A DNA stretch of 64,000 nt. Origin: Alphaproteobacteria bacterium. GTDB lineage: Bacteria; Pseudomonadota; Alphaproteobacteria; Rickettsiales; SXRF01. The stretch is taken from the NCBI GenBank assembly GCA_046344715.1, contig JBKDKX010000015.1:10690-74689 (forward strand), in the 5' to 3' direction. The notes under the pieces are model-generated. The model was given only the letters and a program-made list of their open reading frames with translations, had not been told where the DNA came from and did not search any database. A program made the position numbers and the translations under genes. Below are positions 4,692 through 39,241 of the stretch, one piece after another. Within the stretch, counting starts at the first letter, position 1. The number at the start of each line of letters is the position of its first letter.

Positions 4692-5266
4692 GACTTAAGC
4701 AGCCTTTCTGCATAACGCGCCATAATGTCAATTTCCAGATTAAGTGTATCACCGATTTTACGGTGTTTAAGAGTGGTATGCTGCCATGTATGTGGGATGA
4801 TGTTCACCCATAAACGGTTGCTTTCCACCTTGTTTACGGTGAGCGATATCCCATCGAGCGTGACAGAACCTTTGGCAGCAATGAAGCGCGAAAAGGCGGC
4901 GGGTACTTCAAGCGTAAGTATTTGTGACCCCCCAGATTCTATCATGCTGGCAATGGCTGCAACGCTGTCTACGTGACCGGTGACAAGGTGCCCATCTAAG
5001 CGATCACCCAGCTTCAGTGAACGCTCAAGATTTACTAAGTCCCCTTTATTCCAGCGCGGAGCGGTGCAGGATAATGTTTCTTGTGAAATATCGGCTGTAA
5101 ACCCACCGGCTACCTTCTCTACCACCGTCAGGCAGCAGCCGTTCACAGCAACTGAATCACCAATGCTCAGATCATCTGCGAACGGGCAGGCAATGGCAAT
5201 ACGCACGTCGCCATGTTTTGCGATGTCGGTGATGGTGCCTGTATGCGTTATGATGCCGGTGAACAT
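4688..5266 (-). CDS. ribE: riboflavin synthase (alpha chain)
   Basis: MFTGII start, GDSVAVNGCCLTV, GHLVTGHVD. Confidence 0.97.
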   Translation of the reverse strand: MFTGIITHTGTITDIAKHGDVRIAIACPFADDLSIGDSVAVNGCCLTVVEKVAGGFTADISQETLSCTAPRWNKGDLVNLERSLKLGDRLDGHLVTGHVDSVAAIASMIESGGSQILTLEVPAAFSRFIAAKGSVTLDGISLTVNKVESNRLWVNIIPHTWQHTTLKHRKIGDTLNLEIDIMARYAERLLKS

Positions 5267-6273
5267 GGTTCAAAAATTTCCAACTGGTCAGGAGGGAAGG
5301 GAATGTAGTCCACTTTTTTCCATTGTTCCAGCAGGTTGAGGGTTTTTTTATCAGCGAACGCATCAAGCCCATCTTCCCCAATGGTAAAGGGGGCTTTGAA
5401 CCAGTAGATGCTATCCACTAAGTAACTGTTTATAAGCGCAGTATTTAATCCTTGCCCAGCCTCCACCAGCAGGCGTGTGATGCCCTTTTCAGTCAATTCC
5501 TCTATGGCGGATTCGAGAGTTGGAGAATCCAAAACCCAGAGAGGTGCAATATTCTTTGACTGTATGAGTTTAGAAGTGGCAGGCAGGCGGTGTTTTCTAT
5601 CCAGTACCACGCGCACAGGTGATTTATGCTCAAGGTTTTGGAGGCGCACAGTAAGAAGCGGGTCATCAGCCAGCACGGTGCCGATCCCGGTAAGCACCGC
5701 ATCAAACTCGCTGCGCAGACCGTGCACTTCGTTACGGGCGGCGTTACCGGTTATCCATTTTTTGCCGCTGTGTGTGGGATAAGCAATTTTTCCATCAGCA
5801 GAGGTTGCAATCTTGAGCGCAATATACGGTCGTTTTTTTTCAACAACGGAAAAGAACCCACGGTTAATTTCTTTCGCTTCCGCTGCGCACATATTTTCTA
5901 CAATTTCAATGCCAGCTTCTTTTAGCTTTGCAATGCCTGCACCATTTACATTTTTATGTGGATCACGGCAGGCGATGACGCAGCGCGCAATACCTGCGCT
6001 AATAATAGCATCAACACATGGGGGAGTTTTGCCGTGATGCGAGCAGGGCTCAAGAGTGACATATAATGTTGCGCCGCGTGCATTAAGATCTGCTTGCGTG
6101 AGCGCTTCGGTTTCTGCATGTGGGCGGCCGCCGCGCGCAGTGCAGCCTTGCCCAATGACCACATTATTTTTTACCACTACTGCACCAACGGATGGGTTTG
6201 GCCATGTCTGGCCGAGGTTGGTTTTGGCAAGCGATAATGCCTGCTGCATATAGGCCATGTCCTGATCAGGCAT
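5248..6273 (-). CDS. ribD: riboflavin deaminase/reductase RibD
   Basis: PNPSVGAV, HAE, TLEPCSHHGKTPPC. Confidence 0.97.
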   Translation of the reverse strand: MPDQDMAYMQQALSLAKTNLGQTWPNPSVGAVVVKNNVVIGQGCTARGGRPHAETEALTQADLNARGATLYVTLEPCSHHGKTPPCVDAIISAGIARCVIACRDPHKNVNGAGIAKLKEAGIEIVENMCAAEAKEINRGFFSVVEKKRPYIALKIATSADGKIAYPTHSGKKWITGNAARNEVHGLRSEFDAVLTGIGTVLADDPLLTVRLQNLEHKSPVRVVLDRKHRLPATSKLIQSKNIAPLWVLDSPTLESAIEELTEKGITRLLVEAGQGLNTALINSYLVDSIYWFKAPFTIGEDGLDAFADKKTLNLLEQWKKVDYIPFPPDQLEIFEPCSPAS

Positions 6274-6281
6274 GGCCTGCC

Positions 6282-6668
6282 TCAGTATTGTTTAGGGAAA
6301 GGTTTGCGCGCGCCGCGCAGCTCAACGTCTGGTACGCCTGATTCAGTTGATGGCGGAATGATAGGCGGGCGTTCGTCTGTAAACGTTCTGGAACGTTTTG
6401 GTTCTGTGCTGTTAGCATCATCCGTATCGTCGTCGTCCTGCGTGAGTTCGCTTTTTTCTGCCTCTATTTCCTGTTGGGTAGAGTCTGTGCTTGCCTCTGT
6501 ATCATTAGTGAAGCACTGCCAGTGGTTGCACCGTTCACCAATCACAGGCATATAACCGCCCACATAGTCTGCCCACCCATGCATGGTCTGGCAGCCAGCA
6601 AGCGAGAGGCAACTTGCCGTGAGGTATACAATGTTACGTATGCTACTCACCTTTGCCACCCAATTCAT
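6282..6668 (-). CDS. putative lipoprotein
   Basis: Lipobox LSLAGC, CNHWQC, acidic tail; fills the nrdR-ribD gap. Confidence 0.6.
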
Positions 6669-7101
6669 CTACGATATTTTCAAAATCTTTTGCCTCACGG
6701 AAATCACGATATACAGAAGCAAAACGAATATACGCAACCGTATCCACTTTTTTGAGTTCTTCCATCACGGCTTTGCCAATGGTATCAGTGGCGATTTCAG
6801 GTTCACCGGAGCTTTCCAGCTTTTGCGCAATGCGTGTGATGATTTGTTCTACCTGTTCGGTACTGACGGGGCGTTTACGCAGTGCAAGCTGAATGGAGCG
6901 CGCCAGCTTGTCGCGGTCGAACATGCGGTGTTCGCCATTCTTTTTGAGTACGGTGAGCTCGCGCAACTGCACACGCTCGAAGGTGGTAAAGCGTGAATTG
7001 CATTCTGGGCAATAACGCCTGCGGCGGATGGTCAGCCCATCTTCGCTTGGGCGCGAATCCTTCACTTGGGTGTCGTCATGTCCGCAGAATGGGCATTTCA
7101 T
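6643..7101 (-). CDS. nrdR: transcriptional repressor NrdR
   Basis: [31 protein letters not shown]. Confidence 0.98.
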
Positions 7102-7104
7102 ACA

Positions 7105-8421
7105 TTACCTCTGGTCTAACCCTGAATAGATAGGAAATTGTTTGCACAGTGCTTCCACTTTTGCGCGCACCTGTTTTTCTACTGCGCTGTTGTCGCCGCC
7201 TTTTGCGAGGCCATCAAGTACATCGCCAATTAAATTGCCTATCTGCTGGAATTCAGCTGTGCCAAATCCGCGAGTTGTACCCGCCGGTGTGCCAAGGCGG
7301 ATACCGGAGGTGATAAAAGGTTTTTCCGTATCAAACGGAATGGCATTTTTATTGCAGGTGAGGCCAGCACGCTCAAGGCTTTCTTCAGCGGCTTTACCGG
7401 TGACGCCTTTCGGGCGGAGGTCAACCAGCATCAAATGGTTATCGGTGCCGCCGGTGGTGATGGCAACGCCACGGCTTACCAGCGTTTTGGCAAGTGTCTG
7501 CGCGTTTTCAATTACCTTCTTGCCGTACTCCTTGAATTCAGGCTTTAGTGCTTCGCCGAATGCAACAGCTTTAGCGGCAATCACATGCATGAGCGGGCCG
7601 CCCTGAATACCGGGGAAAATCGCTGAGTTGAATTTTTTACCGAGGTCAGCATCGTTCGATAAAATCATGCCGCCACGTGGGCCGCGCAGTGTTTTATGCG
7701 TGGTGGTGGTGACGACATGCGCGTGTGGCAACGGGTTCGGATATAAACCTGCAGCAACGAGACCAGCAAAATGTGCCATATCCACCATGAGATATGCACC
7801 CACTTCATCGGCAATTTTACGGAAACGGGCAAAATCAATCACGCGCGGATAAGCAGAATAACCGGCAATGATGAGCTTTGGCTTGTGCTCACGCGCGGCT
7901 TTTTCCATGCTGTCATAATCGAGCGTGAGGTCGGATTCTTTAACACCATATGCAACTGCCTTAAACCATTTACCGGATTGGTTCACCGATGCACCGTGTG
8001 TTAAGTGACCGCCCGCAGCAAGTGACATACCAAGGATGGTATCACCGGGCTGCAGCAGCGCGGTAAACACGCCCTGATTGGCTTGTGAGCCTGAGTTAGG
8101 CTGCACGTTGGCATAAACGCAACCAAATAGCTTGCAGGCACGTTCTATGGCCAATGCTTCCGCTTTATCCACTGCTTCGCAGCCGCCGTAATAACGTTTG
8201 CCCGGGTAGCCTTCAGCATATTTATTGGTGAGCACAGAGCCTTGCACGGCAAGTACGGCACGGCTTACGATGTTTTCTGACGCAATCAGCTCGATCTGTG
8301 TTTGCTGGCGGTGGAGCTCTTCTTCCAGTGTAGCAAATACAGCAGGATCAGCGGTTGAGATATCAGCATCAAAAAATGGATTCATGGTGTGGCTTTCAGA
8401 AAGTTTGCGTTGTGCGGTCAT
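7105..8421 (-). CDS. glyA: serine hydroxymethyltransferase
   Basis: [35 protein letters not shown]. Confidence 0.98.
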
Positions 8422-25785: not shown

Positions 25786-25862
25786 CGCGGGGTGGAGCAG
25801 CCCGGTAGCTCGTTAGGCTCATAACCTAAAGGTCGTCAGTTCAAATCTGGCCCCCGCAACCA
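25786..25862 (+). tRNA. initiator tRNA-fMet(CAT)
   Basis: C1/A72 mismatch, anticodon arm ttagg-ctCATaa-cctaa, T-loop gttcaaat, CCA. Confidence 0.96.
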
Positions 25863-27489
25863 TTCCGGCTTTAAATGAGCCGCCCAGAGCCAGTTTAAAA
25901 AGATTCTCAGAGTTGTAGCGAAGTTCAGCTTCTAAGTACTCATTTGAATTCGGTATTAATCGAATTTGCCCCATTAAGCCCTTCAAACACTGCCGCGCTT
26001 GGGTGACGTCTGTATAAAGGGCTTGGCCTAATCCGGCGACCAGTGCCTTATAACGCTCCACTGCGCGTGGCAGAACGGTAGTAATGATCTCTGCAGCCTT
26101 CGCATTGGCCTGTAGTTCTCTTTTAGCCCGAGCATACTCAGCTTCTGCATTCTGCAAGGCTTCCTTGGTGGTAGGGGTAATGATACCAGCCTGTATCGCC
26201 TTCATGATGTTAGCGATTTGCTCTTCTGCTTCCTTGGCTTTACGCTTTTGTGTGTCCACGTCCGGTTTCCGTGCGTTCTGCCTATTCTGTAAATCTTCTG
26301 TAATAATAGAAAGAAATACCTCCATCGCTTCGTCAGAAAGTAAGTCTTGGCGGATTATATCAAGTAAGCTGCCCTCAAGTATTTTACGCGATAAGCGCAG
26401 CCGGTTGGAACATGCCGCATCGCCACGGTTTATGTTAGTAGAGCACCCATAAGAGGTGCTGCTGTAGACGGTATAGCTCGCCCCGCAACAGCCACATTGT
26501 ATCAAGCCAGAAAATAAATACTTACCACTATGCGAGCGCGTTCTGGGATTATCCATCACTTCCCTAAGTTGATTAGATCGCTCGCGGATTTCCTTATGCC
26601 GTGCCTGCACCACGTCCCATAATGGCTGTGGCACAATGCGTAGTTCCGGCATTTCGGTTATCACCCATTCCTTTGCTTCGCGCTTGGTACGCCTGCGCTT
26701 TCCAGTATCGGGGTCTTTTCGCCATTCTGAACGGTTCCAAATATAACGGCCAATATAGAGCTGGTTATTTAAAAGCCCCGTGCCGTCATTATGGTCGCCA
26801 TAGATGGCGCTCGCCGCCCATGTAGAACCGCGTGTTGAAGATACGCCGAGGCGGTTCAGCTTATCAGCAATCCGCTTTGGGCTATCACCACCCGCAAACC
26901 ACTCGTACATTTGCTGCACCCACTTAGCTTCATCCGGGTCTATTTCACGCCTAACGGCTATGATCTCCGGCCTGCCATTGGGGTCCTTGCGTATTGGGTC
27001 TTCAATCGGCACGCGCTTATAACCATAGGTTCGCCCGCCTGCGCTGTATCCGCCCATTGCCTTGCCATACATTCCTCGATGTGTCTTTTCGCGTAAGTCG
27101 TCGAGGTACATCTCGTTCATCAGCCCGCGCATCGTGGACTGAATCTTCTCACCTTTGGTTGCTGAGTCATATCCGTCCGATACGCCAACGATGCGTAGGC
27201 CTTGGAACTTGAACCGGCGAATAACTTGCTTCATTTCCACATCGTCGCGTGAGAGCCGGGAGAGATCATCCACCAACAGCACTTTAAATTCGCGCCGCTC
27301 TGCCGCTGCAAGCATCGCCTCAAAGCCGGGACGGTTTTTGCTGGTCCCTGATATAGCCTTGTCATCGAATTGTGTGGCTAGCGTCATCCCGCATCGCTCG
27401 GCATAGCGAGTACAGTTGCGAACTTGGTCATCAATTGAGCTTTCACTCTGTTTATCACTGCTAAAACGCGCATATATAACTGTCTTCAT
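25819..27489 (-). CDS. large serine integrase
   Basis: YARFSS nucleophile, SRLSRD, recombinase domain, CGCCG..YGC..C zinc ribbon, coiled coil; GGAGG before MKTVIY; 3' end overlaps tRNA antisense. Confidence 0.95.
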   Translation of the reverse strand: MKTVIYARFSSDKQSESSIDDQVRNCTRYAERCGMTLATQFDDKAISGTSKNRPGFEAMLAAAERREFKVLLVDDLSRLSRDDVEMKQVIRRFKFQGLRIVGVSDGYDSATKGEKIQSTMRGLMNEMYLDDLREKTHRGMYGKAMGGYSAGGRTYGYKRVPIEDPIRKDPNGRPEIIAVRREIDPDEAKWVQQMYEWFAGGDSPKRIADKLNRLGVSSTRGSTWAASAIYGDHNDGTGLLNNQLYIGRYIWNRSEWRKDPDTGKRRRTKREAKEWVITEMPELRIVPQPLWDVVQARHKEIRERSNQLREVMDNPRTRSHSGKYLFSGLIQCGCCGASYTVYSSTSYGCSTNINRGDAACSNRLRLSRKILEGSLLDIIRQDLLSDEAMEVFLSIITEDLQNRQNARKPDVDTQKRKAKEAEEQIANIMKAIQAGIITPTTKEALQNAEAEYARAKRELQANAKAAEIITTVLPRAVERYKALVAGLGQALYTDVTQARQCLKGLMGQIRLIPNSNEYLEAELRYNSENLFKLALGGSFKAGMVAGARFELTTFRL

Positions 27490-27577
27490 AATTACCTCCA
27501 TGTGAACAACCGTCCAGCTTATATGGACAGGTGGGAATCGAAAGAGAAATGGTGGGCTAGTAATATAAGAGAGGTTT

Positions 27578-27620
27578 TAAGGGTTAGTGGGTTATAACCT
27601 AATAACCCCTTTAACCCTTA
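27578..27620. repeat. GGGTTA/TAACCC inverted repeat cluster (candidate origin or terminator)
   Basis: taagggtta (27578-86)/taaccctta (27612-20) and gggttat (27589-95)/ataaccc (27602-08). Confidence 0.6.
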
Positions 27621-29306
27621 TCCTGTAGCTTAACGCCGTCCCGCTTTTGCACCTGTTTTGATGCCGGAACATATTTGCCGTCTGGCGTACGTAATATGAT
27701 TCCATCGCGCACCATACGATTTAACGTCTTTCCAATACCACCCTGCTTACGATCAGTTTCTTGTGCAATTTCACGGGAACTCATCGGACGTCCCACCTGC
27801 ACCATAGCAAGCACGATCTCCTGATGTGTGCTGCTTATACGTAGTGGTACAGCATCGCCATGCGCTGTCCAAACTCCTTCATCAAAGGTCAGTGCTATTT
27901 CCTGTTCCACAACGTCACGACCACTTACATGCAATGATGCTTGAGCATTATTACGTTCACGAATCAGTACAAAATTAGTATCGGCTGAACCAGATATGCC
28001 ATTGGTTCCAGAAATCATCTCAAACGGATCATCAGAACCTTGTTTGCGCACATGATGTACCACCACAATTGCTATTGCAAAGCGGTCAGCAATTTTCTTC
28101 AGTGCGGAAACAGCCTCATAATCCTCATAGTATGAACCGCCACCTTTCGGTGTATTTCTGACCTTGGCAAAAGTGTCGATGAAGACTGCTTTGCAAGCTG
28201 GATTCTTCGCAAGCCTTCGTTCAAGCGCAAGTAGGCCTTGTTCATCCACAGACTTCCAAGTTATATGGAATTCCAACCGCCGCGCATCTTCGCGGGCAAG
28301 GTTCGGCGCAACCTTTTTTAATCGATCCTTTAATCGACGCTCAGAGTCCTCAAGAGCTAAATACAGAACCTCAGCAGCCTCGGTATCGTAAAAATTAAGT
28401 GCTCTTCGGCCAGAAGCAATGGCCACCACCAGCGCAAGTACAAGCCAACTCTTGCCGATCTTCGGTTTGCCCGCTAAAAATGTCAATCCTACTGGAATTA
28501 AGCCGGGTATTACCCAACGTATAGGCTCAATATCTTTTAGCAAAAGTTCGTCAGCAGAAATGCCTGTGCCTAGAAAAAGAGGCACTCTTTCAAGATTAGC
28601 GAATGCTTGTTTTGCCTTTTTCCCATGCAATTTTATAAAGTCATCTACGCCAACCTTCATTACTCCTGCGGGACGCGGTAAATCTATCCGAAAAGGGTTT
28701 GCGCCGTAGTTTACTAAAGCATCACGTAACGCATCCAAGGCCGCTTGTACGTTTTTCTTATACATCGGCATCAAACACGATAATGGTTTTACGATTTACC
28801 AGTTTGATATGGTTAAAATCGCTGATGACTTCTGATGATTCATCTTCTTTCGATTTCCAACCCCATACACCGCTCAAGCCAATTGCCGGACTGCCGAGCA
28901 ATGTAAGCGCAGCAGCCTTCTTTTCGCCTTCAACAATATATAAATCATCGCTGTTTACTGCGATTTTCGACCAATCGCAGAATGGTGGGAAATAAAATCT
29001 AGGTTTAGTGCCAGTAAGCTGTAAGTATTTTACAGACTTTTTCGCTCCTTGCGGTGTATATTCTTCAAGCAGTTTATATCGGCAAAATCCATTAAGCTTA
29101 CCGTCAGGGTCAAAATATGGGATTTCGTACGCCCATACTTTTGGTAGATTTTTAGGCGCAGGTTTATTTAATTTGATGTAAGCATTGCGAAATATACTTG
29201 CCATTTCGTCGGGGGATACATCACGAATTTGCATAACCTCGGCTGCTTTTTGATCCAGACAGCTATTCTTCAAATCATCAAGTGTTGGTTTCCTAAATTT
29301 AGTCAT
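27611..29306 (-). pseudogene. DUF3854-type primase fused to RepA/AAA_25 helicase, frameshifted near 28760
   Basis: ORF1 has VEGEKKA and ends at TOPRIM motif FDADV*; ORF2 continues KNVQAA..KVGVDDF then GKPKIGKS, YLALED, FIDT, VVHH. Confidence 0.8.
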
Positions 29307-29467
29307 AATTGTTCCTTTGCGTTGGTGATACGCGCAGCTTCATGCTCACGCGCAAGATGACCTCCATCGCTTGACAACGGTTCTTCCAATGCACGGAGTT
29401 CGTCGAAATATTGTTCGACCGCTACCCGTGCTAGTAATCTAATTATGTTGCGAAGTTCTGGCGTCAT
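29303..29467 (-). CDS. 54-aa protein (not in ORF track), candidate recombination directionality factor
   Basis: MTPELRNIIRLLARVAVEQYFDEL...; ATGA overlap with primase start. Confidence 0.6.
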   Translation of the reverse strand: MTPELRNIIRLLARVAVEQYFDELRALEEPLSSDGGHLAREHEAARITNAKEQL

Positions 29468-29528
29468 GTCCCGCATATACGTGACAAAACAACTTATGAA
29501 AACGCCCTATCAGGATACCTAAAAGGTA

Positions 29529-30179
29529 TCAGAATCTAAGCCAATATCCCTTAGCAAACGCTAAAGTGCGCCGCATGGCGGCTTCCGTAATGCTATTTTC
29601 CCCGCCAAATATTTCTGCCATCACTTTTATTGAAACGCCTTCATTGTCAGCATCAAGGATACGTAGCAGAAGCGCTGGTGATCTCCCGTTCTTATTATTC
29701 TTTCTCTTGTCACGTTTGCGGCGCTCTGCAGAAGAATGCGTGCTCTTTGCATATTTTTCGTAAACTGCTTTTATGTATGCCAGTTGCGGTTTTATCGGGT
29801 GATTTCCATCCACACTAAAAATGAACCCGCCGAGCGGCTTACTTAAAGCCATCGCTTCATAATGTAAAAGCTGCTTTGTTTGATCGTGCTTAAGGAAATC
29901 AATTAAATGACAGGGCTGTGTATATTTAGGAGCAGCTTCTTGACTGGGGTCATGCCAATCATACAGCTCATATTTCATAAACCCATAAGGCTTTCGATTA
30001 AGCCAGTCCTTACGGTAATTCGGATCGCGTCTTAGGAATTCCCATCTTAGCCCATTCTCTTTTAGGCGTTCCACGTATTCATATTGTTGGGGCTTATCCC
30101 AATCGCATACATTCCATTTAGCGCGGTTCTTAGCCGCTTCTTTAGGGGGGAGTAGTTTTCGCATTCCTGCCTTAGCCAT
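29529..30179 (-). CDS. DUF6499/DUF2285 (FseA-like) transcriptional regulator
   Basis: WEFLRRDPNYRKDW and LLRILDA..G.S...A..FG helix-turn-helix. Confidence 0.7.
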   Translation of the reverse strand: MAKAGMRKLLPPKEAAKNRAKWNVCDWDKPQQYEYVERLKENGLRWEFLRRDPNYRKDWLNRKPYGFMKYELYDWHDPSQEAAPKYTQPCHLIDFLKHDQTKQLLHYEAMALSKPLGGFIFSVDGNHPIKPQLAYIKAVYEKYAKSTHSSAERRKRDKRKNNKNGRSPALLLRILDADNEGVSIKVMAEIFGGENSITEAAMRRTLAFAKGYWLRF

Positions 30180-30187
30180 GCTAATAA

Positions 30188-30424
30188 TTATCTCTTCATA
30201 AGTCTCTTTAGGATTGCTATCGGATCAGCGCTGAGTAACTTGGCAATCTCAAGGAACTCGATGAGATCAAGCCTACGCTCCCCTAATTCATATTTGGCTA
30301 CGAATGATTGTGGCTTCCCAAGTAATTTGGCCAATTCCTGCTGTGTATAGCCAGCTTTCTGCCTAGCTGAATGTAGCAGACCGCATAACTTCTTTACCTC
30401 TTTGGAATGTATTGTCTTTTTCAC
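30188..30424 (-). CDS. XRE HTH, controller-protein/QseC-like
   Basis: RQKAGYTQQELAKLLGKPQSFVAKYELGERRLDLIEF. Confidence 0.9.
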   Translation of the reverse strand: MKKTIHSKEVKKLCGLLHSARQKAGYTQQELAKLLGKPQSFVAKYELGERRLDLIEFLEIAKLLSADPIAILKRLMKR

Positions 30425-30467
30425 TATGGCTGCACAAATCTCTTGATGTGAACAGCCAAAGGAATTA

Positions 30468-30498
30468 ATCCTAAAATAGAATTATCCCAAAATAGGAT
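30468..30498. promoter_or_regulatory. tandem palindromic operators
   Basis: atcctaaaatagaat (30468-82) and atcccaaaataggat (30484-98), 16-bp period, in the divergent intergenic region. Confidence 0.7.
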
Positions 30499-30511
30499 AT
30501 TTAGGAGTAAT

Positions 30512-30982
30512 GTGTTGCCAGATAACGTAGACAAATTAGATGGCAAAGCATTAATGGATGCCTATCGATTTGTCCGCATCGGAAGCATAATAGCCCCTAA
30601 CCCAGTAACATTCTCAATCGAAATTCATTTAACTGAGGCTTTGTCATGGGAAAAAGCGATTTACATATTCGTATTTAATAATGAGATTGTGCGCGTGGGA
30701 TCGTCCAAAGGGCGACTCGGAAGGCGAATGAAAGAATGGTGTCGCTGCGTTACCAATGCGCTTCACAGAGTAAATGGACTGCCTGCCAAAAAAACAGTCA
30801 CACCCGATTGGGAAGCTCGTGGATGGAGCAAACTTTTAAATGCTCATGGCAGTGGGGAAATTTATGCCCGCGAAGCCACCGAAGTCACCACTCCGGTGGG
30901 CTCATTTAGGGCATATATGGACGAAGAAAGTATCCTCATAAATCGCCATAAGCCCAAAATGAATAGGCACAAAAATCGCTAG
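30512..30982 (+). CDS. GIY-YIG-like nuclease
   Basis: AIYIF..IVRVGSS..LGRRM..E.ILI..P.MN pattern. Confidence 0.6.
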   Translation: MLPDNVDKLDGKALMDAYRFVRIGSIIAPNPVTFSIEIHLTEALSWEKAIYIFVFNNEIVRVGSSKGRLGRRMKEWCRCVTNALHRVNGLPAKKTVTPDWEARGWSKLLNAHGSGEIYAREATEVTTPVGSFRAYMDEESILINRHKPKMNRHKNR

Positions 30983-31046
30983 GTTTTCGGTAGCAGCAGT
31001 TTTTGCATTATAGCTTTAGCTATTTTGAGATGGTCTCTAAAATTAA

Positions 31047-32384
31047 TTATGCTACTTCAAAAAGTTTGTAATTTTCAGAGGCTAAGACTGATAAGGATAA
31101 ATACGCTTTTTCGTCACCTTCAATGAATTTAATAATTTTGTTTAATACCATACCCATCGCACGCGCCATTAGAGGGGGGATTGCATTACCTACTTGCGCA
31201 CAGCGGGATACATCCAATTTTCTTCTCTCACCATTTAAAGTATATCGACCATAAAAATGGAAATCATCAGGAAAAGACTGAATCCGCGCCATTTCCCTAA
31301 TGCTGACATTTCGTGGGTACAAGTAATGGATAATTTCATCTGGATGTGTAGTTAGCGTAGAGCATGGTTTTTTGGGGTCTAACAAAAATTTCTTGTCTGT
31401 TTTAGTGCCACTTGCGAGCAAGAATTCTTTACTGAGCCTACCTTTCGGCTGAGTTTTGTGCGCGGCAATATAAAGACTACGAACTTTTGGCCCATGCTGT
31501 GAAAAACGATGGGAATTTGGGATCGATTTATTAGAAATACCCCTTCGCATTAGCTTCGCATATGTGCTTTTCGCTGGTAAGTATGTTGTGGATGGGAATT
31601 TAGGAGAGTCAGGACAAACAACTTCTGTGGCATTAGCCAAATCATGTAATGCTTCTTCAATATTTACTGGCCTATCTAAGGGTAAATTTAGCTCTCTTCG
31701 CTGTTCTAGAGATACCGATGCAAAGTAATTCTCGATAAGATTTTTAACATTAGATATGTCTTTTAGTTGTTTCTTGATTCCAACTATTACAACGCGTTTG
31801 CGCTCTTGCGGAACCCCATAGTCAGATGATTTAATTGTTGTAAATCCTGACGAATAACCTAGTTCCCGCAAACGCGCTAAAACTAAAGTTGCTACACTTT
31901 CTTTTAGCTGTCCTGGGCGTGCCTTAAAAGGGCGCGCAATTCCTTCTACATTTTCAATCATAACCAACGGTGGTTCAACGAGCTCAACGAGCTCAAGCAT
32001 CTTAAATGCTAATTCGTTCCTAGGGTCATCGCCATTGCGTAAACCACCAACTGAAAAACCTTGGCAGGGTGGTCCCCCGCAGATTAGAGAAATTTTCCCA
32101 TTAAGGCCCTTTAACTTTTTTCTAATACCCTCATCATTCAATAAATTCTCAATAGTATAATTTTGTTTTGGGAGCCAATTTGGCCATTTTTCAAAGTGCC
32201 CATAAGGCGCATCTGCGCACATCATATTCTTAGAGATAGTCTCAAATGCCATTGCATCTTTCTCGATGGCAAATATACCTTCCCATCCAGATTGTAATAA
32301 CCCTAAAGACAATCCTCCACAGCCAGCGAAGGCATCTATATATGTCTTTTTATTCAATAATTTTATTAGGTCTTCATTTTCCAT
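31047..32384 (-). CDS. DNA cytosine-C5 methyltransferase
   Basis: FAGCGG, GGPPCQGFS, ENV, PQ.R.R, SIREMARIQSFPD, QVGNA. Confidence 0.96.
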   Translation of the reverse strand: MENEDLIKLLNKKTYIDAFAGCGGLSLGLLQSGWEGIFAIEKDAMAFETISKNMMCADAPYGHFEKWPNWLPKQNYTIENLLNDEGIRKKLKGLNGKISLICGGPPCQGFSVGGLRNGDDPRNELAFKMLELVELVEPPLVMIENVEGIARPFKARPGQLKESVATLVLARLRELGYSSGFTTIKSSDYGVPQERKRVVIVGIKKQLKDISNVKNLIENYFASVSLEQRRELNLPLDRPVNIEEALHDLANATEVVCPDSPKFPSTTYLPAKSTYAKLMRRGISNKSIPNSHRFSQHGPKVRSLYIAAHKTQPKGRLSKEFLLASGTKTDKKFLLDPKKPCSTLTTHPDEIIHYLYPRNVSIREMARIQSFPDDFHFYGRYTLNGERRKLDVSRCAQVGNAIPPLMARAMGMVLNKIIKFIEGDEKAYLSLSVLASENYKLFEVA

Positions 32385-32453
32385 ATATAGCCACTACTTT
32401 AGGTTATCTATACTATATATAGCAGAAAAAGAAATGGGGTTTTAGAAATATCT

Positions 32454-33236
32454 TCACTTCTTGTTTTGAGTATCTAACAACTTATTCAAGTAATCGTGTA
32501 CATCAACCCCTGCCTTAAGAGCTGTATTTCTTAACCATTCAATATTCTCACTTGATATTCTTATAGGCGCGAATTTTTCAGGATATGCCCAACTGCATTT
32601 GAAACAATCTAGTTTACAACCTCGGCACGCGGTACTTTTAAAATTATTGCATTCCCCGCACAAAGGTTGCCAATTTTCTGAACTGTCGCCACCGCCCCGT
32701 ACTCGTGGAATTTTATGGTCTTGGTCAAACCTAACTTCAGGTTCTTTCCTCCCGCATACTGCACAAGAAAACTGATACTTACTTAGAACCGCAGACCAAT
32801 CCGCGTCAGATAATTTTACTCGTGGAATTCTTTTTGGAGAAAGTGCTAAATTTATAAGTTGGTATGTATTCCCTTGCCTTGCAATACCCGTGAGACCTTC
32901 CTCCCCCTGTAGTTCACGGACACGTCTAAACACATCAACATAAGGTTTATATACTGTGGTTTGATCGTGTTGGGATAATCTAAATTTATCTACTGCAGCA
33001 CGAAATTGTTCCGTTTTTATGTGGGGGCCGGGAATCTTATGCCCTGATGGCCAGAGAGTTTCTAACATTACTTTATAATATTGGCGGTTTGCTTTACTTA
33101 GCGAAACAAATTCTTTGACAACACCTTCAATCCAAGCGTCCCTTTCCTTGTCATTGGCAGAAGGCGTTCTATCAGGGGCCACAAGCTCTAGAAACTTTTG
33201 CCTTCCTTTGCTTTTTTTAGGTGAATTTTCTGACAT
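32454..33236 (-). CDS. HNH endonuclease, probable restriction endonuclease
   Basis: CAVCG..DHKIP..GG..NWQPLCGECNNFK; co-oriented upstream of the MTase. Confidence 0.85.
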   Translation of the reverse strand: MSENSPKKSKGRQKFLELVAPDRTPSANDKERDAWIEGVVKEFVSLSKANRQYYKVMLETLWPSGHKIPGPHIKTEQFRAAVDKFRLSQHDQTTVYKPYVDVFRRVRELQGEEGLTGIARQGNTYQLINLALSPKRIPRVKLSDADWSAVLSKYQFSCAVCGRKEPEVRFDQDHKIPRVRGGGDSSENWQPLCGECNNFKSTACRGCKLDCFKCSWAYPEKFAPIRISSENIEWLRNTALKAGVDVHDYLNKLLDTQNKK

Positions 33237-33415
33237 TTTGATAGGTTATGTGATTTAAGATATTACCCTGTTTATCACACCAATCTGAAATTGGTAGCTC
33301 AGTTGCCGTGTAAGCACAGTATTTTAATCCAAGACGAAACATTGGACGCTAGAAGAAAAGGGATTATGCTAAAAAACCTATTGTAATAGGATGAAATTTC
33401 TCAGAGTAAAATGCA

Positions 33416-33500
33416 ATGTCTAGTATTAAACTTAAAAATGTAGAAATAGACTATTTTCGTTCTATTAAGTAGTTATATTTCGATTTTCCAGAAAGTAAGC
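33416..33500 (+). pseudogene. remnant of ABC/SMC-type (AAA_15/OLD-like) ATPase N-terminus
   Basis: MSSIKLKNVEIDYFRSIK*LYFDFPE; in-frame TAG, no Walker A follows. Confidence 0.5.
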
Positions 33501-33649
33501 GGAAACGAAAACCTAAAGTATGCAATGCGGAACGTACAATAATTTCTGGCTTCGTATTCTTTGAGCGAATACGGGACATAATCCAGCTTCGATAATTAGG
33601 GGATTTCATGCTTACCATGCAATGTTTAGGTCAATCGCTAATATGAAGA

Positions 33650-34765
33650 TTAAGATAGAAGCTCACGGATAGCTTTACCCCTCAATTCGCGTTGAGCCTT
33701 ACGCCCAACGCTTTCGCGTGCTGCAAGTGTATAATCATCAGGCACCTGTCTTGAGAATTCCAACAGCCGTTTCCGAGCTTCGTCCTGAGGTAATTGCCTT
33801 AACGTAGCATTGCGGCTCAGTTCGACGGCCAAGCTAAAGAAATTAGCTTTATTCCACCACATCGATGAATCCGGAATATCAATTCCAGAAATAAATTCGG
33901 CGCTATCATTAATTGCAGTGATGACTTCATCATGTTCAGGAAAATCTTGTGCTTTTTCATCAAGATATTTTCTTACTCTATCATTACGCTGATAATAGCC
34001 ATCCATAAATGTACACATCAGGTTGAGTGTAAACATTAATGGTACTTTCCGATCAAATTCGAATGCGGTAAAAATGGATTTAGCTCTAACCAATTTAGAA
34101 AAGGGGCCATCTGCAGTTTGAATAACCCATTCCCAAGTTTTTTCATCGATTCCAGGATCTTTGCTGAATAAATTGCTTGCCAGTACTTCTAGATTACCAT
34201 CTTCGCTACCAACATCACCAAGTTCATCACTGTCTGAAACCTCATTGGAGATTTCTCCAGAGAGGGCTCGCGCTACTAACATAAATTCAGATGCAGAATA
34301 TTCTGAAGCTAATTTTTCGATAGCGGAGAGTGAGTAAAATGTTCTATTAAGCCTACGAAACACATCTTTTAGGCGTTCATCACCTGCATCCAGGTCAAAA
34401 TCAATTACAGGAACTTCATACTTCAAAAATATTTCACGTTCTGATGTAGTAAGATCTTTAAAAACTTTTCCATCAACAGTTAGGTTGCCATTAATAAATT
34501 CGCGAATTGTATTAAGGCGTTGCTGGCCATCTACTACAGCTTGGCTAGCTTGCATAGTATCCAAATCAATTGGCCCTCTAGCCAAAAAAATTTGGGGAAA
34601 TGGGTAGCCTTTTAAGATCGTATCAATAAAGTCGCGTTTATGGGTATCGCGCCAAACAAGGTTTCTTTGGAAATATGGCGATAAAGTAAGGCGTGCACTG
34701 CGCATTGCTGACACTAAGTCAATAATTTCCCTGGAACGCACAGTGTATTTTAAATCATTTTGCAT
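33650..34765 (-). CDS. DUF262 (GmrSD-N/ParB-Srx-like) protein
   Basis: PYFQRNLVW, VVDGQQRL, VFRRLN; no HNH/DUF1524 motif seen. Confidence 0.9.
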   Translation of the reverse strand: MQNDLKYTVRSREIIDLVSAMRSARLTLSPYFQRNLVWRDTHKRDFIDTILKGYPFPQIFLARGPIDLDTMQASQAVVDGQQRLNTIREFINGNLTVDGKVFKDLTTSEREIFLKYEVPVIDFDLDAGDERLKDVFRRLNRTFYSLSAIEKLASEYSASEFMLVARALSGEISNEVSDSDELGDVGSEDGNLEVLASNLFSKDPGIDEKTWEWVIQTADGPFSKLVRAKSIFTAFEFDRKVPLMFTLNLMCTFMDGYYQRNDRVRKYLDEKAQDFPEHDEVITAINDSAEFISGIDIPDSSMWWNKANFFSLAVELSRNATLRQLPQDEARKRLLEFSRQVPDDYTLAARESVGRKAQRELRGKAIRELLS

Positions 34766-34767
34766 AT

Positions 34768-35358
34768 CTACCCCATCAAAGTTGAAAGTGCGCTATCTTG
34801 TTTCCAGCAGAATGCATACTCATTCATATATACTGCTAAAGTAATTCGATTAAATGTCGCGGTATGTTTACGGCTTATCTGTCCTTCAAACTGCTTATGT
34901 AATTGGCTAAGCTGAGATTTAGGCATAACCTTAATTCTAATCATGCCGCGCTTAAGTATTTGTTCTTTAAATAGCTCAATCTGCTCAACACTCATGACCC
35001 CAAAAGGCGTGGAATCTGTAAAGCTACGAGTTGCTTTTACTATATCGATCCAAAGCTTTTGAAAAAGATCCGTATTTACGCACGCAACATCAAGATCAGA
35101 GATGGCCAGTTCAAAAAGCTTATCCTTGTATATGCTAAACCCTAATTGTGCAGAACCACAAAAATGAATACTTGAGTATGGAATTTTAAAATATTGGGAA
35201 ATCTCTGTCTTGATATCGAATTCTTTTTCCCTTTGCCGACTTAGCGAAGCAGGCCTTTCTTCTATGAACAGACGGCGTGCACGCATCTCTCGATCTGCAT
35301 ACCTAGCACCTATCGACCGAACCTGTTTCTTTAATTGTTCAAGCACTGTTTCCATCAT
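34768..35358 (-). CDS. Pol-beta-like nucleotidyltransferase-fold protein
   Basis: hGS (CGSAQLGFS) followed by SDLDV; 2 bp from the DUF262 start. Confidence 0.7.
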   Translation of the reverse strand: MMETVLEQLKKQVRSIGARYADREMRARRLFIEERPASLSRQREKEFDIKTEISQYFKIPYSSIHFCGSAQLGFSIYKDKLFELAISDLDVACVNTDLFQKLWIDIVKATRSFTDSTPFGVMSVEQIELFKEQILKRGMIRIKVMPKSQLSQLHKQFEGQISRKHTATFNRITLAVYMNEYAFCWKQDSALSTLMG

Positions 35359-35720
35359 TCGAAAACTCTAGTCGAGCGCAAAGCAATTGTACATCCTTGA
35401 AAGATTACGAAATGAAGTTAAAAATAGTTGGCCAAGCGGTTAACACTTATCTATTTTGGAATGGTAAAGTGCCTTCGACTGACGTTTAATATCATCAAAA
35501 ATCGTCATCGGGTTGGACAGCGCTATGACTGATAATACAGTCAGGAAACATTCAAACCCCAATGCCACCATTCTTGTTAATACAAGAAAGAAACAAGATA
35601 AAAGCCCCACTGTTAATACAATGGGAAAACAGTTAAAATGGTGGGCTTCAAGCAAAGGTTAAGGAGCGTTACCCAGTGGTCGCCCTAGAAGTCCCATAAA
35701 CCGACATTGGAGTCCTTTAG

Positions 35721-35835
35721 CTAGGCGGGTCTAGGTAGGCATCGCTTAACCTTAAACTCGACCTGCTGTCCTTTTATGGGAATCCGCACTATAAGGGCTG
35801 GGGGTTCGGTATTAATGTTTGAGCTAAATCGCGCC
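35721..35835 (-). repeat. internal copy of element right end / integrase tail
   Basis: cttttatgggaatccg..ctataag.gctgg..tattaa.gtttgagctaaatcgcgcc shared with 39123-39231. Confidence 0.88.
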
Positions 35836-36139
35836 GCCACATCCCAAGAATTTTGTTCTAAATCTGAGTTTTAAAAGCCATTTAAAGTTAGAACAAAAGC
35901 GCGTGCCCACATTGTGTTAGATGCTGAAGGCCGTGACGTTTGCTGCTGTACTAAGATTTTACTGCTCGGATTTCACTTTTTGTGTTATTTTTCTAATAAT
36001 TCTAGTAACTTAGATTACCTTAAGGGAGTGCAAATATTCTAAAATTCTTTACGCAAAATAATTACTTTACTTTTCTTAACCTCATAATAGGCTACTATCT
36101 ATCCCCTGTAGATAAAAAAAAATATAATAGGAGAAAGTT

Positions 36140-39088
36140 ATGACAAATGGAATATCGAGTGAGTTAAGCAGAGCCTTAGATTTGATTAAAGATAGAAAGG
36201 CATGGCCGTCTTCTGCAGCATTCGACAGCCACTTTTCTAATGCAGGGGTAGCTTCCAAATTTGAGCATGCCGCCCAGAAGGGCGATCTGTACGCAGCAGA
36301 ACGTATGTACCGTGTCTATAATGATTGGAACCAAAAATTAGATTCATATAGCGGCCAATATGGGTCTTCATACTACGTACATGTGTACACTATCGATTCA
36401 GAGGCAGCAGAAAGAATTCGTGGAAAAACTCTATCTGAAGTAGCACTTGATTATCCGTCAAATGCGTATTTCCAATCTGGAAGAAGACAACTGCAATGGA
36501 GACCACTTAGTGCTCTTGACATGTGTGTTTACCAAACAACTTATGATGCAAGAACTAAACACTCGTTTATACCCGACCACTATTCATTAAGAACTGATAG
36601 TGAGTCAGAAAAACCAGAGGTATATTTAGGAAGTAGTAAAATTACCACGGAACTAAGCGGTCTATCTGTGGCGGCTGCGTCTGGTAGCGCGGCAGCTGCT
36701 GATATACTTGGTAAATTCTATGATGTTGGTAGCATTACGTACGCAGCGTTTCTCCGCAATAAAAGAGCTGGCAATCCACATTACAACAGCCAAAAATCAG
36801 GTTATTATTCACGTCTACACAACTTCCTCACCGGCAAAAATGATGCGATGTATGGGGAGTACGTTGATGCACGCCTGAAAGACCCCGAAGGTATGTATGA
36901 TGTGGCGGAAGCGATTATCACAAATCAACATGTACGAAAATCATACAATCAGAAGAATGGCATAGCTGGCGATTCTGACCAAGGCGCACGAGATATACTT
37001 AAAAATGCAGCAAACCTTGGTTATGCCAATGCTGCGTGGCGGTTGGCGCGTCTGCATCATGAGCAATATATCATGACTGATAGCAAAACCGAGCTACAGC
37101 AATTGTTCCATTGGTATAAAAAAGCGGCAGAGCTTGGTAATAAGGAAGCAAGTCATCATATTGCGTATTTCAAGGCGCAGTTTCCAGATATTGAAGCCAC
37201 CGCAGCTTCGCTGGATAAGGTAGCAGTAAGCAACCCAACATCTGACTATCTGGCAAAACGCCCCGATGCTCTGGGTGAAGTGGTGATACCGGAGGCGGAT
37301 ATTGCATTCTTAAAATCACATAATCCAGATATAAAGGGAAGCCTGACCACAGCATCTAGCCTGCTTGATAAACAGCTCGGTGAAATGGACAAGTTTATGT
37401 CTGCGCTACAGGCAAAAATAAAAGTCTTGTTGGATAACGCAACACGTCTTGCCGAAGCGCAAGCTGCTATCGCCGGACGTGAAGACCAGATTCATCAACG
37501 CGTACAGGCACTTCATGAGATGAGAATGATACTGGCCGATGATAAAGGTCGAGGGGCTGAAGGTTGGGTATCAGGTGCAAATACCTTATTAATTACAGCA
37601 AACCCCAAGTTGGCTATTTTAGATGGACTCATGCGCTCGACTTTAGAAAAAGTAGGTACGTCTAACCAAGGAGGGTCTTTTGAAAATTATTTAAAGGCTC
37701 AGCGAATCAAGGTGGAGCTAGTGCGTGAGGAAGTAGCTAATATTGACCAAGCCATTGCGGCCACAAGGGGCACAGCACTGGTTAAAAGTATTCAAAAAGA
37801 CGAAGTGTCACAACGTCGTCTGCTTTCGGCATACCTGAAAAAGACACTTATTGACCAAGGGTTAAAGAATATTGCCTCACTAGAACCAATTGCAAAACAA
37901 CACGGCTTTAATTCGGTTGACCATTTAATCTCAGTAAGTGCCAATATTGCAGGTGACCAAGGAATGCTTGCAGGCGCATTGGGTGCATTTGTGCGTGGAT
38001 TTGCAGATACTAAGGATATGGAAACAATCATTGCACACGCTAACCGCCACACACTAGGCGGCAAAGAGTCTGAATTTAAGGTGACAAATGCTATAGTAAA
38101 TTTTGTTGAGCAGGTTATTAAACCAAATATAGACCAATATTCTTCCCTTGCATCACGCGTGGATGTGCTTAAAGCCGAAGGTGTTGATTTTGTGCAAAAC
38201 CCTAACGCCACACTTGCCACCAGAGACTACAAAAATCCGACCTTTGTCAAAACGTTGCTTGAAACTGAGTATAGCGTTTCAGGAAGCGCAGAAGTGGCAA
38301 AAATGTTTGACCACTCCATGCACAGGCATGGCAAACATGTCATTTATGACCCAACAGCGGATGGGGTGCAACACACCAAAAAAACCATAGATTTGGTTGA
38401 GCCGGATGAGGTCAGGGAATATAGCGATCTCGTGGCACAAAAAAGCAAACGTGGTGACAGGACACTTCCTCCTATGCCAAGCTTATTTACAAGAACCTGC
38501 GCAAATGAATACCTCACCCCATTGACAAAAAAACATGCTGAATCGACTAAATTTCATGATAGGCCGGATGCAGCACTTGCCTATGTAACTGCTACCCATG
38601 TGGTCGCAGATTTTATCGATAAGATGTCATTAAGCCCTCTGGCCAAATATAGGGCGACCCTAAAAGATAAATCATTAGTGGATAATGTTATTGCCCAGAC
38701 ATTCTTTGATTTCTTCAGCAGCATGGGTGTTGCACACAAAGCTAATTTTGCCGCTGGGTTTCAAGATGTAGAACGAAAATTTGGTAGTGGTGATTTTACC
38801 AAAGCAAGTTCAGATCTGGGACGGGAAATATCAAAAGATATGCTTGCACAATATGACGTATATGCAAAGTTGCTTGAAGCAAATTTAAAGAAGTCTCTCT
38901 CTGACAGCATTGCCCCAGAAGCAAGGCAATTACTGGCACAACTTGATGCCCTAGAAAAAGAAGGAGTTTCTATTGTAAAGCCTGAGATCATCAAAAATCA
39001 TGCCAGCCAGTATCTTGATGAATTGCGTACGCGAGAGATGGCGTTTGAGAATATGAGTCCGGCTGCACGCAGCTTGAGGGGAAAATAA
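36140..39088 (+). CDS. 982-aa Sel1-like repeat protein
   Basis: LKNAANLGYANAAWRLA, WYKKAAELGNKEASHHIA; AGGAG RBS; coiled-coil middle. Confidence 0.8.
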   Translation: MTNGISSELSRALDLIKDRKAWPSSAAFDSHFSNAGVASKFEHAAQKGDLYAAERMYRVYNDWNQKLDSYSGQYGSSYYVHVYTIDSEAAERIRGKTLSEVALDYPSNAYFQSGRRQLQWRPLSALDMCVYQTTYDARTKHSFIPDHYSLRTDSESEKPEVYLGSSKITTELSGLSVAAASGSAAAADILGKFYDVGSITYAAFLRNKRAGNPHYNSQKSGYYSRLHNFLTGKNDAMYGEYVDARLKDPEGMYDVAEAIITNQHVRKSYNQKNGIAGDSDQGARDILKNAANLGYANAAWRLARLHHEQYIMTDSKTELQQLFHWYKKAAELGNKEASHHIAYFKAQFPDIEATAASLDKVAVSNPTSDYLAKRPDALGEVVIPEADIAFLKSHNPDIKGSLTTASSLLDKQLGEMDKFMSALQAKIKVLLDNATRLAEAQAAIAGREDQIHQRVQALHEMRMILADDKGRGAEGWVSGANTLLITANPKLAILDGLMRSTLEKVGTSNQGGSFENYLKAQRIKVELVREEVANIDQAIAATRGTALVKSIQKDEVSQRRLLSAYLKKTLIDQGLKNIASLEPIAKQHGFNSVDHLISVSANIAGDQGMLAGALGAFVRGFADTKDMETIIAHANRHTLGGKESEFKVTNAIVNFVEQVIKPNIDQYSSLASRVDVLKAEGVDFVQNPNATLATRDYKNPTFVKTLLETEYSVSGSAEVAKMFDHSMHRHGKHVIYDPTADGVQHTKKTIDLVEPDEVREYSDLVAQKSKRGDRTLPPMPSLFTRTCANEYLTPLTKKHAESTKFHDRPDAALAYVTATHVVADFIDKMSLSPLAKYRATLKDKSLVDNVIAQTFFDFFSSMGVAHKANFAAGFQDVERKFGSGDFTKASSDLGREISKDMLAQYDVYAKLLEANLKKSLSDSIAPEARQLLAQLDALEKEGVSIVKPEIIKNHASQYLDELRTREMAFENMSPAARSLRGK

Positions 39089-39122: not shown

Positions 39123-39241
39123 TTAACCCATTCGGTTAACTCTAACCTTGCTTTGTTGCCCTTTTATGGGAATCCGGACTATAAGTGCTGGAGGCTCGTT
39201 AGGGTTATTAAAGTTTGAGCTAAATCGCGCCCCCGCAACCA
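39123..39241 (-). other. attR with in-frame alternative integrase C-terminal tail
   Basis: Minus strand reads VAGARFSSNFNNPNEPPALIVRIPIKGQQSKVRVNRMG* in the integrase frame across the att core. Confidence 0.8.

Follow-up and report, generated by a model that had tools for sequence, protein, structure and literature searches.

In SspE and BrxU, as described in the passages of PMC10952713 and PMC12065111 that deal with these enzymes, the DUF262 domain binds and hydrolyses nucleoside triphosphates (NTPs) and, together with a middle domain, senses DNA and controls a nuclease. The relevant sections of the same two papers and of PMC12409362 also describe nuclease-less DUF262 proteins that work with separate partners: PD-T4-2 (HEPN), Menshen (an ABC ATPase with a nuclease/RNase), Dazbog and TgvAB/GrwAB. 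The validated systems PD-T4-2, Dazbog and Menshen each have a DUF262 protein that lacks DUF1524, and in the passages concerned this protein is proposed to be the DNA sensor (PMC12065111, PMC10952713). The mechanisms of these validated systems are unsolved. Here we analyze the simplest such case, a two-gene locus on the minus strand of a 64,000-nucleotide stretch of contig JBKDKX010000015.1 (hereafter, the window), in which a small nucleotidyltransferase (NTase)-like gene, A, is followed directly by the gene of a nuclease-less DUF262 protein, B. DUF262-centered two-component conflict systems are already known, and we regard the NTase-partnered pair as a variant of them. We propose that the pair is a conflict module of two genes, self-contained and horizontally mobile, that is most likely anti-phage cargo, of the abortive-infection or restriction-like kind, a reading to which we give a probability of roughly 0.45.

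The locus comprises the following features:

34768..35358, minus strand: gene A, an open reading frame (ORF) of 196 amino acids (aa), a divergent minimal nucleotidyltransferase-like protein
35089..35157, minus strand: codons 68-90 of A, the GS...S-D-x-D core and presumed nucleotide and metal site, placed by its invariant residues and by hhalign profile alignment to minimal nucleotidyltransferases (MNTs)
34766..34767, minus strand: 2-bp spacer from the stop of A to the start of B, followed by the ATG of B
33650..34765, minus strand: gene B, an ORF of 371 aa, a nuclease-less GmrSD-type DUF262 protein with a PF03235 match
34298..34717, minus strand: residues 17-156 of B, the ParB/Srx-like DUF262 NTP-binding domain (PF03235, E 3.4e-22)
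34517-34531, minus strand: the invariant DGQQR motif of B, residues 79-83
34169..34237, minus strand: residues 177-199 of B, an acidic, variable, disordered linker (predicted local distance difference test, pLDDT, below 50; length variable in the alignment)
33653..34168, minus strand: residues 200-371 of B, a helical C-terminal domain without nuclease motif, the counterpart of the BrxU/SspE middle domain

The original prediction, made from the letters of the window, had described a 196-aa ORF ending 2 bp before a 371-aa DUF262 ORF; the ORF list and the junction sequence bear this out, and the motifs quoted for the two proteins were all located in them. In A, GS is at residues 68-69 and S-D-L-D at 87-90, and in B there is an FQRN stretch, DGQQR at 79-83 and an F..LN stretch at 136-140. 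A second ATG lies one codon into gene A and would give a 195-aa form.

Neighborhood conservation, on which the original prediction had staked the pair, holds in 25/26 loci when searched from A and in 8/8 when searched from B. We found 13 A loci in species-representative genomes: B lies directly next to A in 11/11 of those with downstream DNA (one of these, L012, looks degraded), while the two remaining loci are interrupted by contig ends. Twelve viral-contig loci from IMG/VR encode an A at only 20-30% identity by global alignment, and a full-length B is next to it in 12/12, with DGQQR present in all twelve of these distant partners. Of 400 other genomes sampled evenly across the phylum, three gave an A match; two of these have the A-B pair, which brings the total with B directly downstream to 25/26 testable loci. 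Searching from B, 17 viral loci gave nine full-length matches, with A upstream in every one (8/8) that has upstream DNA; at the eight viral loci matching the generic DUF262 domain only, A was found in none.

A precedes B in every case. When the longest ORF is taken for B, the two genes lie -11 to +7 bp apart in 15/18 other loci, the three remaining values (-35, -49 and -104) reflecting an upstream in-frame start of B. The two genes are co-transcribed, with their order fixed and the spacer near zero. Across 20 loci, the pairwise identities of A and of B are strongly correlated (Mantel r 0.91, reached by 0/5000 permutations), which, given the common history of related loci, shows co-inheritance as a unit and no more; in all comparisons B is better conserved than A (mean pairwise identity 42% vs 31%). 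No third component emerged: among ORFs of 80 aa or more, no neighbor is conserved across loci, and nothing like the 71-aa ORF upstream of A (35440-35655), or like either flank, is present at the other loci. A and B are a conserved, self-contained, co-inherited two-gene unit. That two unrelated genes should merely have come to lie side by side is refuted by the pairing seen from both genes and by their co-divergence. Spurious ORFs are ruled out as well, A and B each having many full-length relatives, so that we give this whole explanation a negligible probability.

On the viral contig L023, A and B appear fused (4704-6590, a single 628-aa ORF), a fusion that we reject; the near-identical contig L024 (4704-5737) has two genes with a clear ribosome-binding site, and the two contigs differ in homopolymer lengths at the A/B junction. 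The L023 fusion is most likely an assembly error and not natural. In the third genome with a match in the 400-genome sample, L078 encodes a 390-aa protein (5877-7049, plus strand) whose N-terminal half is A-like and whose C-terminal half has another GS...DxD-like stretch, followed by an overlapping ORF (6932-7876, plus strand) that looks Fic-like by motif. The 12-kb surroundings, read by eye, showed no DUF262 gene near it. These two may be a different NTase-centered pair.

B is clearly a DUF262 protein. Its residues 17-156 match PF03235 (GmrSD_N), and a Pfam scan gave no nuclease family, neither DUF1524 nor HNH. It has 939 relatives at E <= 0.001. In an alignment of 38 sequences the family is conserved along its full length (62% mean column identity), and the DUF262 nucleotide-site motifs, D79-R83 included, are all invariant. 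The sole invariant histidine is H42, in the N-terminal domain; the C-terminal half has none. The AlphaFold2 (AF2) model of B (pLDDT 78) consists of an N-terminal alpha/beta domain, the disordered acidic linker and the helical C-terminal domain. When Foldseek candidates were aligned with VIA, B matched BrxU (model residues 7-371 on chain 1-419) with Z 9.2 over 271 aligned residues and SspE (chain 1-528) with Z 8.3 over 295; in both alignments the root-mean-square deviation (rmsd) is large, from a different domain orientation, and the C-terminal parts of BrxU and SspE are left unaligned. The CTP-switch domains of ParB, KorB and Noc reached Z 6-7 (ParB complexes with CTP or CDP, 7.1-7.3). In the ESM Atlas, residues 200-371 of B match the equivalent region of GmrSD_N + HNH proteins of roughly 400-440 aa with template modeling (TM) scores of 0.71-0.78. 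Because of the BrxU/SspE alignment and this Atlas match, we conclude that B corresponds to a GmrSD-type enzyme reduced to its sensor/NTPase half and its middle domain, with no nuclease. The nuclease-less nature that the original prediction had given to B is thus confirmed by the Pfam scan, the alignment of 38 and the fold alignment. On one viral contig, L035 (2980-4488, plus strand), the B homolog has 502 aa, being about 130 aa longer at the C terminus than the other family members, and the extension has no Pfam match.

B shares with the type IV restriction enzymes GmrSD, BrxU and SspE the DUF262 NTPase domain with DGQQR, followed by a helical domain, but it stops where their DUF1524 (His-Me) nuclease would start. 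Its PADLOC matches are confined to the shared DUF262 domain: NsnA (1.5e-19) and PD-T4-2_A (1.6e-14), then HEC-05 and HEC-06. According to the part of PMC12065111 that treats Menshen (NsnABC), NsnA joins ParB-DUF262 to a helical DNA-binding "ParBDB" domain, lacks a nuclease and is a proposed DNA sensor. B has the same two-part build, but the match covers only its residues 3-148 against positions 42-192 of the 385-position NsnA profile, that is, the DUF262 part; no NsnB ABC-ATPase or NsnC effector gene lies next to the pair in any locus, and the partner in A-B is an NTase encoded upstream. The two-gene PD-T4-2 system of E. coli resembles A-B in combining a nuclease-less DUF262 protein with a small separate enzyme. 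In the passage of PMC10952713 describing it, PD-T4-2 has DUF262 without DUF1524 and with a HEPN domain. Here again the match to B is limited to the shared core (residues 12-93) and is not full-length, and the partner is NTase-like instead of HEPN: A matches neither PD-T4-2_B nor any other PADLOC model and has no invariant histidine. In the GmrSD-like TgvAB/GrwAB of Vibrio cholerae, as the relevant section of PMC12409362 puts it, a nuclease-less DUF262 protein works only with a partner protein; that partner is a second DUF262 protein with DUF1524, whereas the A-B pair has no nuclease. As for Dazbog (DzbAB), no Dzb model of PADLOC-DB 2.0.0 matched A or B at E <= 0.01 or any of 76 A relatives at E <= 0.1. 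No named system in PADLOC-DB 2.0.0 (2023) fits the pair and it has no model for the window A or for any of the 76 relatives, so within that collection the lack of a named match reported by the original prediction stands. In the literature, we found no searchable paper pairing DUF262 with a nucleotidyltransferase; the supplements of PMC12065111, which classify DUF262-centered operons, may bear on this point.

Gene A is divergent. Pfam gave no family for it even at E 10, PADLOC no match, and NCBIfam and PHROGs nothing meaningful. Its relatives at E <= 0.001, 175 among 90%-identity clusters and 192 among 50%-identity clusters, are in the former set all about 190-200 aa long and all unnamed. Among 76 diverse aligned members, which share 22-56% identity with the window protein, no columns other than G68, S69, S75, S87, D88 and D90 are invariant (76/76); G73, F82, A92, F119, G138, P146, Y177, K186 and Q187 are nearly invariant, and there is no invariant histidine. 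The hG[GS] motif of Pol-beta NTases is present as G68 and S69 and the [DE]h[DE]h motif as S87, D88 and D90, each in 76/76, and judged by sequence this invariant GS...DxD is the signature of Pol-beta-type nucleotidyltransferases. In the AF2 model of A (pLDDT 95.5; predicted TM score 0.90), GS sits at a strand-to-helix turn, where strand 64-67 ends and helix 68-72 starts, and SDxD where the following strand, 89-94, begins.

Structure and profile comparisons point to the MNTs. A VIA search independent of Foldseek placed HI0073 (1no5_B) on top with Z 5.6, rmsd 3.6 and 93 aligned residues, and the next MNT matches were a HEPN-MNT complex chain (8xeh_E, Z 4.8), 5yep_A (Z 4.3), 1ylq and 1wot. Against a profile of 19 true MNT ORFs from the relatives' genomes, hhalign laid residues 50-94 of A onto the helix, strand, GS and SDxD core with E 3.5e-4 and an 8-residue insert in A. 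One cluster of structural neighbors that the ESM Atlas gives for A bears the name "Nucleotidyltransferase" (TM 0.75/0.86). Among the 76 relatives, the three most often matched Pfam families are all of NTase fold (MdcG 4, Polbeta 3, NTP_transf_2 2), although all nine matches are weak, with a best E of 0.0099. There was no match of A above threshold to the curated NTase models PF01909 and PF18765, nor anything for PF01909 in the window's own genome, A included. A profile of the 76 members searched against the sequences of the PDB gave chance-level matches only (best, a protein disulfide-isomerase at E 0.033; 1no5 at E 0.74). No longer or fused forms of A were found, which is weak evidence, and longer A-like proteins (P0384, P0385 and others) have no Pfam domain. 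At TM 0.52, the ESM Atlas also gave the C-terminal regions of Rhs-type proteins, a lead only. For the NTase-like nature of A claimed originally, the outcome is mixed: the GS...SDxD core is conserved and MNTs top the fold search, but the fold matches are weak and a Pfam match is missing. We describe A as a divergent minimal-NTase-like protein that has the core of such an enzyme and whose catalytic competence is putative.

MenT and AbiEii are Pol-beta-fold NTases that serve as growth-arresting effectors of toxin-antitoxin or abortive-infection systems, with partners unrelated to DUF262; an output of this sort is what we propose for A. Neither showed a sequence or fold match to A in the Pfam or VIA searches.

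The closest relatives of A by fold are antitoxin-type MNTs, as in the HEPN-MNT (HepT-MntA) systems, which are type VII toxin-antitoxins. In these, MntA AMPylates HepT (PMC7641770, PMC11586414). A might do likewise, nucleotidylylating B, or being titrated by it, and so holding a growth-inhibiting B inactive until phage infection or loss of the element frees it. MNT antitoxins, the chain from a HEPN-MNT complex among them, are the best folds of A (1no5_B, 8xeh_E and 5yep_A, in the order of the Z scores above) and its only profile-profile match, and that alignment spans the GS/SDxD core; as in HEPN-MNT, a small NTase gene comes first in a tight two-gene operon on mobile DNA, overlapping or abutting its partner, and the greater conservation of B than of A and the predicted A-B contact described below (0.43, against 0.00 in controls, weak support) fit as well. 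The partner, however, is a DUF262 protein with no HEPN match in Pfam or PADLOC and no recognizable toxic domain, being without a nuclease and having H42 as its sole invariant histidine. A also departs from the MNTs: it has 196 aa where an MNT has about 95-120, carries three extra N-terminal helices and the 8-residue insert between GS and SDxD, is PF01909-negative and has no conserved counterpart of the third Asp that is invariant in 19/19 MNTs. We consider such an arrangement unlikely on balance, though it is the main rival of our own reading.

The original prediction had favored another direction, in which A makes a nucleotide signal or modification that B senses, binds or removes through its NTP pocket. 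The parts needed for this are there, as the pocket of B is intact (FQRN, DGQQR, F..LN) and A keeps the NTase core, and one of the 76 A relatives weakly matches the PADLOC oligonucleotide-cyclase model (E 0.0028). But the window A has no PADLOC Cyclase match, and no cGAS/DncV-like nucleotidyltransferase (CD-NTase) is among the 50 top VIA matches. B would then be the effector, yet it has no effector domain, and the DUF262 pocket hydrolyzes ordinary NTPs in the solved relatives covered by the relevant part of PMC10952713. Nor does the pair look like a cyclic-oligonucleotide-based anti-phage signaling system (CBASS), A lacking a Cyclase match and B any known receptor or effector domain. With no sign of a signaling nucleotide, and with A nearer to protein-modifying MNTs than to CD-NTases, this direction is not supported and we regard it as improbable.

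Because A is nearest to protein-modifying minimal NTases and B is built as the sensor half of a GmrSD-type enzyme, we favor schemes in which B acts upstream of A, or in which A modifies B. In the first of these, B would be the sensor, a ParB-like switch that depends on NTP and binds DNA that is foreign or modified, as its two domains do in SspE and BrxU and as has been suggested for NsnA, and A would be the enzymatic output, taking the place of the DUF1524/HNH, HEPN or OLD-type effectors of sister DUF262 systems. B would switch A on, probably through direct contact, and active A would stop phage or cell growth by attaching a nucleoside monophosphate (NMP) to a macromolecule, be it RNA/tRNA or protein. 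That the pair is a new immune class of this kind, in which B on foreign or modified DNA directly activates the minimal NTase A and A aborts infection by nucleotidylylating RNA or protein of the host or the phage, is a tentative proposal with the odds against it.

Structure prediction of the A-B complex gave a median score of 0.43 (runs 0.48, 0.00 and 0.43) against a best control of 0.00, with at least 0% of contacts agreeing between runs and a partner pLDDT of at least 83. This mark is reached by 58/80 solved complexes and 2/110 mismatched pairs; scores of 0.60 or under include only 7/80 solved complexes and both passing mismatches, and a score in this range is more often wrong than right unless the contact was likely beforehand. 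The prediction weakly suggests that A and B may touch.

Several observations weigh against the proposal of an anti-phage module with an NTase output. One of the three complex runs scored 0.00. Foldseek searches with the A model against the PDB and the BFVD viral structures returned nothing at E <= 0.001, the MNT matches of the VIA search range only from Z 5.6 to 3.8 with unrelated folds in between, and may reflect a mere common arrangement, and hhalign gives a probability of just 37%. The 76 relatives show no conserved third carboxylate of the catalytic site: of the candidate positions, 143 is D/E in 25/36 close and 42/76 diverse members and K in the window protein, while 180 is D/E in 36/36 close and 60/76 diverse members. 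The nearest structures to A are antitoxin-type MNTs, which would suit a type VII arrangement too. The third match of the 400-genome sample (L077/L078), a divergent A-like gene, lacks a B in the 3.3 kb that the search covered, and known defense genes are not consistently adjacent to the pair. Finally, any defense, toxicity or enzyme activity of the pair is an inference.

The setting of the pair is that of mobile cargo. In the window, A-B is the last cargo of an integrative island, with these features:

25786..35844: island of about 10 kb at tRNA-Met
25786-25862: tRNA-Met
25819-27501: large serine recombinase of the island
31047-32384, minus strand: C5 cytosine methylase (PF00145)
32454-33236, minus strand: HNH endonuclease (PF01844)
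33454..33609, minus strand: truncated vsr remnant of 52 codons between B and the HNH gene (PF03852, E 6e-10)
35742-35844 and 39132-39241: degenerate attachment-site (att)-like copies of a roughly 100-nt block

The HNH and C5 methylase genes have matches in both Pfam and PADLOC. By Pfam, the further cargo of the island comprises AAA_25 and DUF3854 replication-type genes, regulators and a methylase/HNH/vsr-remnant module. The remnant corresponds to the N-terminal third of the Vsr mismatch endonuclease (profile positions 6-43 of 74) and may mark the insertion site of A-B or a deletion. A 156-aa ORF (30512-30982, plus strand), divergent to a helix-turn-helix regulator and adjoining the methylase, has no Pfam match and hits PHROG 1111, "endonuclease", at E 1.6e-5. 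The 3' 20 nt of the tRNA-Met are repeated at 39222-39241 (90%); because of this recurrence and the degenerate block copy at 35742-35844, the region suggests a tandem pair of islands at a single tRNA gene, the second of which (35.84-39.24 kb) encodes only a 982-aa protein (36140-39088, plus strand) without Pfam or PADLOC match. Guanine-plus-cytosine (GC) content is 0.38-0.39 over 31-35 kb vs about 0.46-0.50 in other parts of the window, and 0.396 for the A-B pair vs 0.476 for the remaining window. AT-rich cargo next to a restriction-modification module, as stated in the original prediction, is what the GC profile and the Pfam matches of the HNH and C5 methylase neighbors show, and its mobile character extends to the other loci: the pair is AT-richer than its flanks in 24/24 loci, by a mean of 15 GC points, and integrases are among its neighbors.

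At 22 loci, 162 ORFs lie no more than 4.5 kb from the pair; we scanned 150 of them, leaving out five of L024 (near-duplicate of L023) and seven shorter than 100 aa. Phage integrase is the most frequent family (7), the integrase N domain and the CI repressor come next (3 each), and Psu, C5 methylase and CII have two each; at seven viral loci, integrases account for 5/10 immediate neighbors. PADLOC matched a few methylases among the neighbors and gave single matches to the MADS, PDC-S36 and HKD+Snf2 models. A link to C5 methylation was considered and rejected, PF00145 being found on only 2/150 neighbor ORFs. The carriers of the A-B cargo are prophages and integrative islands.

This setting could also mean that the pair is not for immunity and instead serves the maintenance, partition, replication or DNA modification of its carriers, for example as a ParB-like clamp with an NTase acting on element DNA or protein. 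The fold of B is shared by the CTP switches ParB, KorB and Noc, the carrier of the pair is in every case a prophage or an island, with integrases and repressors beside the pair, and in the window the pair shares its island with the AAA_25 and DUF3854 genes. The carriers, however, are mutually unrelated and no element gene co-occurs with the pair; its cargo position is variable and its AT shift, present even relative to the carriers in 24/24 loci, fits accessory cargo; and BrxU and SspE resemble B more closely than ParB does. We hold a role of this kind to be of low probability.

The pair is rare. A was found in 0/40 relatives of the window genome, three congeners included; A gave no match to the plasmids of PLSDB, the homolog at L016 none to the phages of INPHARED, and the DNA of the L016 pair none to complete E. 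coli genomes. One relative genome of about 2.1 Mb has 11 matches to PF01909, the minimal nucleotidyltransferase family, and the three congeners have none.

Current annotation of the two families goes no further than "hypothetical protein" (A) and "DUF262 domain-containing protein" (B). On chromosomal islands and prophages, conservation of the pair extends from about 70% identity to about 20%. Clear sites for point mutants are D88/D90 in A and DGQQR in B. If the pair defends, a nucleotidyltransferase would join the outputs that a ParB-like NTP switch can drive, and A-B would be a compact system for asking what DUF262 senses. If A modifies B, type VII (enzyme-antitoxin) logic would extend beyond HEPN toxins. 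And if the proposed activation of A by B is true, a type IV restriction enzyme would have had its sensor half rewired from DNA cutting to NMP transfer, and DUF262, HEPN and MNT modules would be joined in one exchangeable toolkit.

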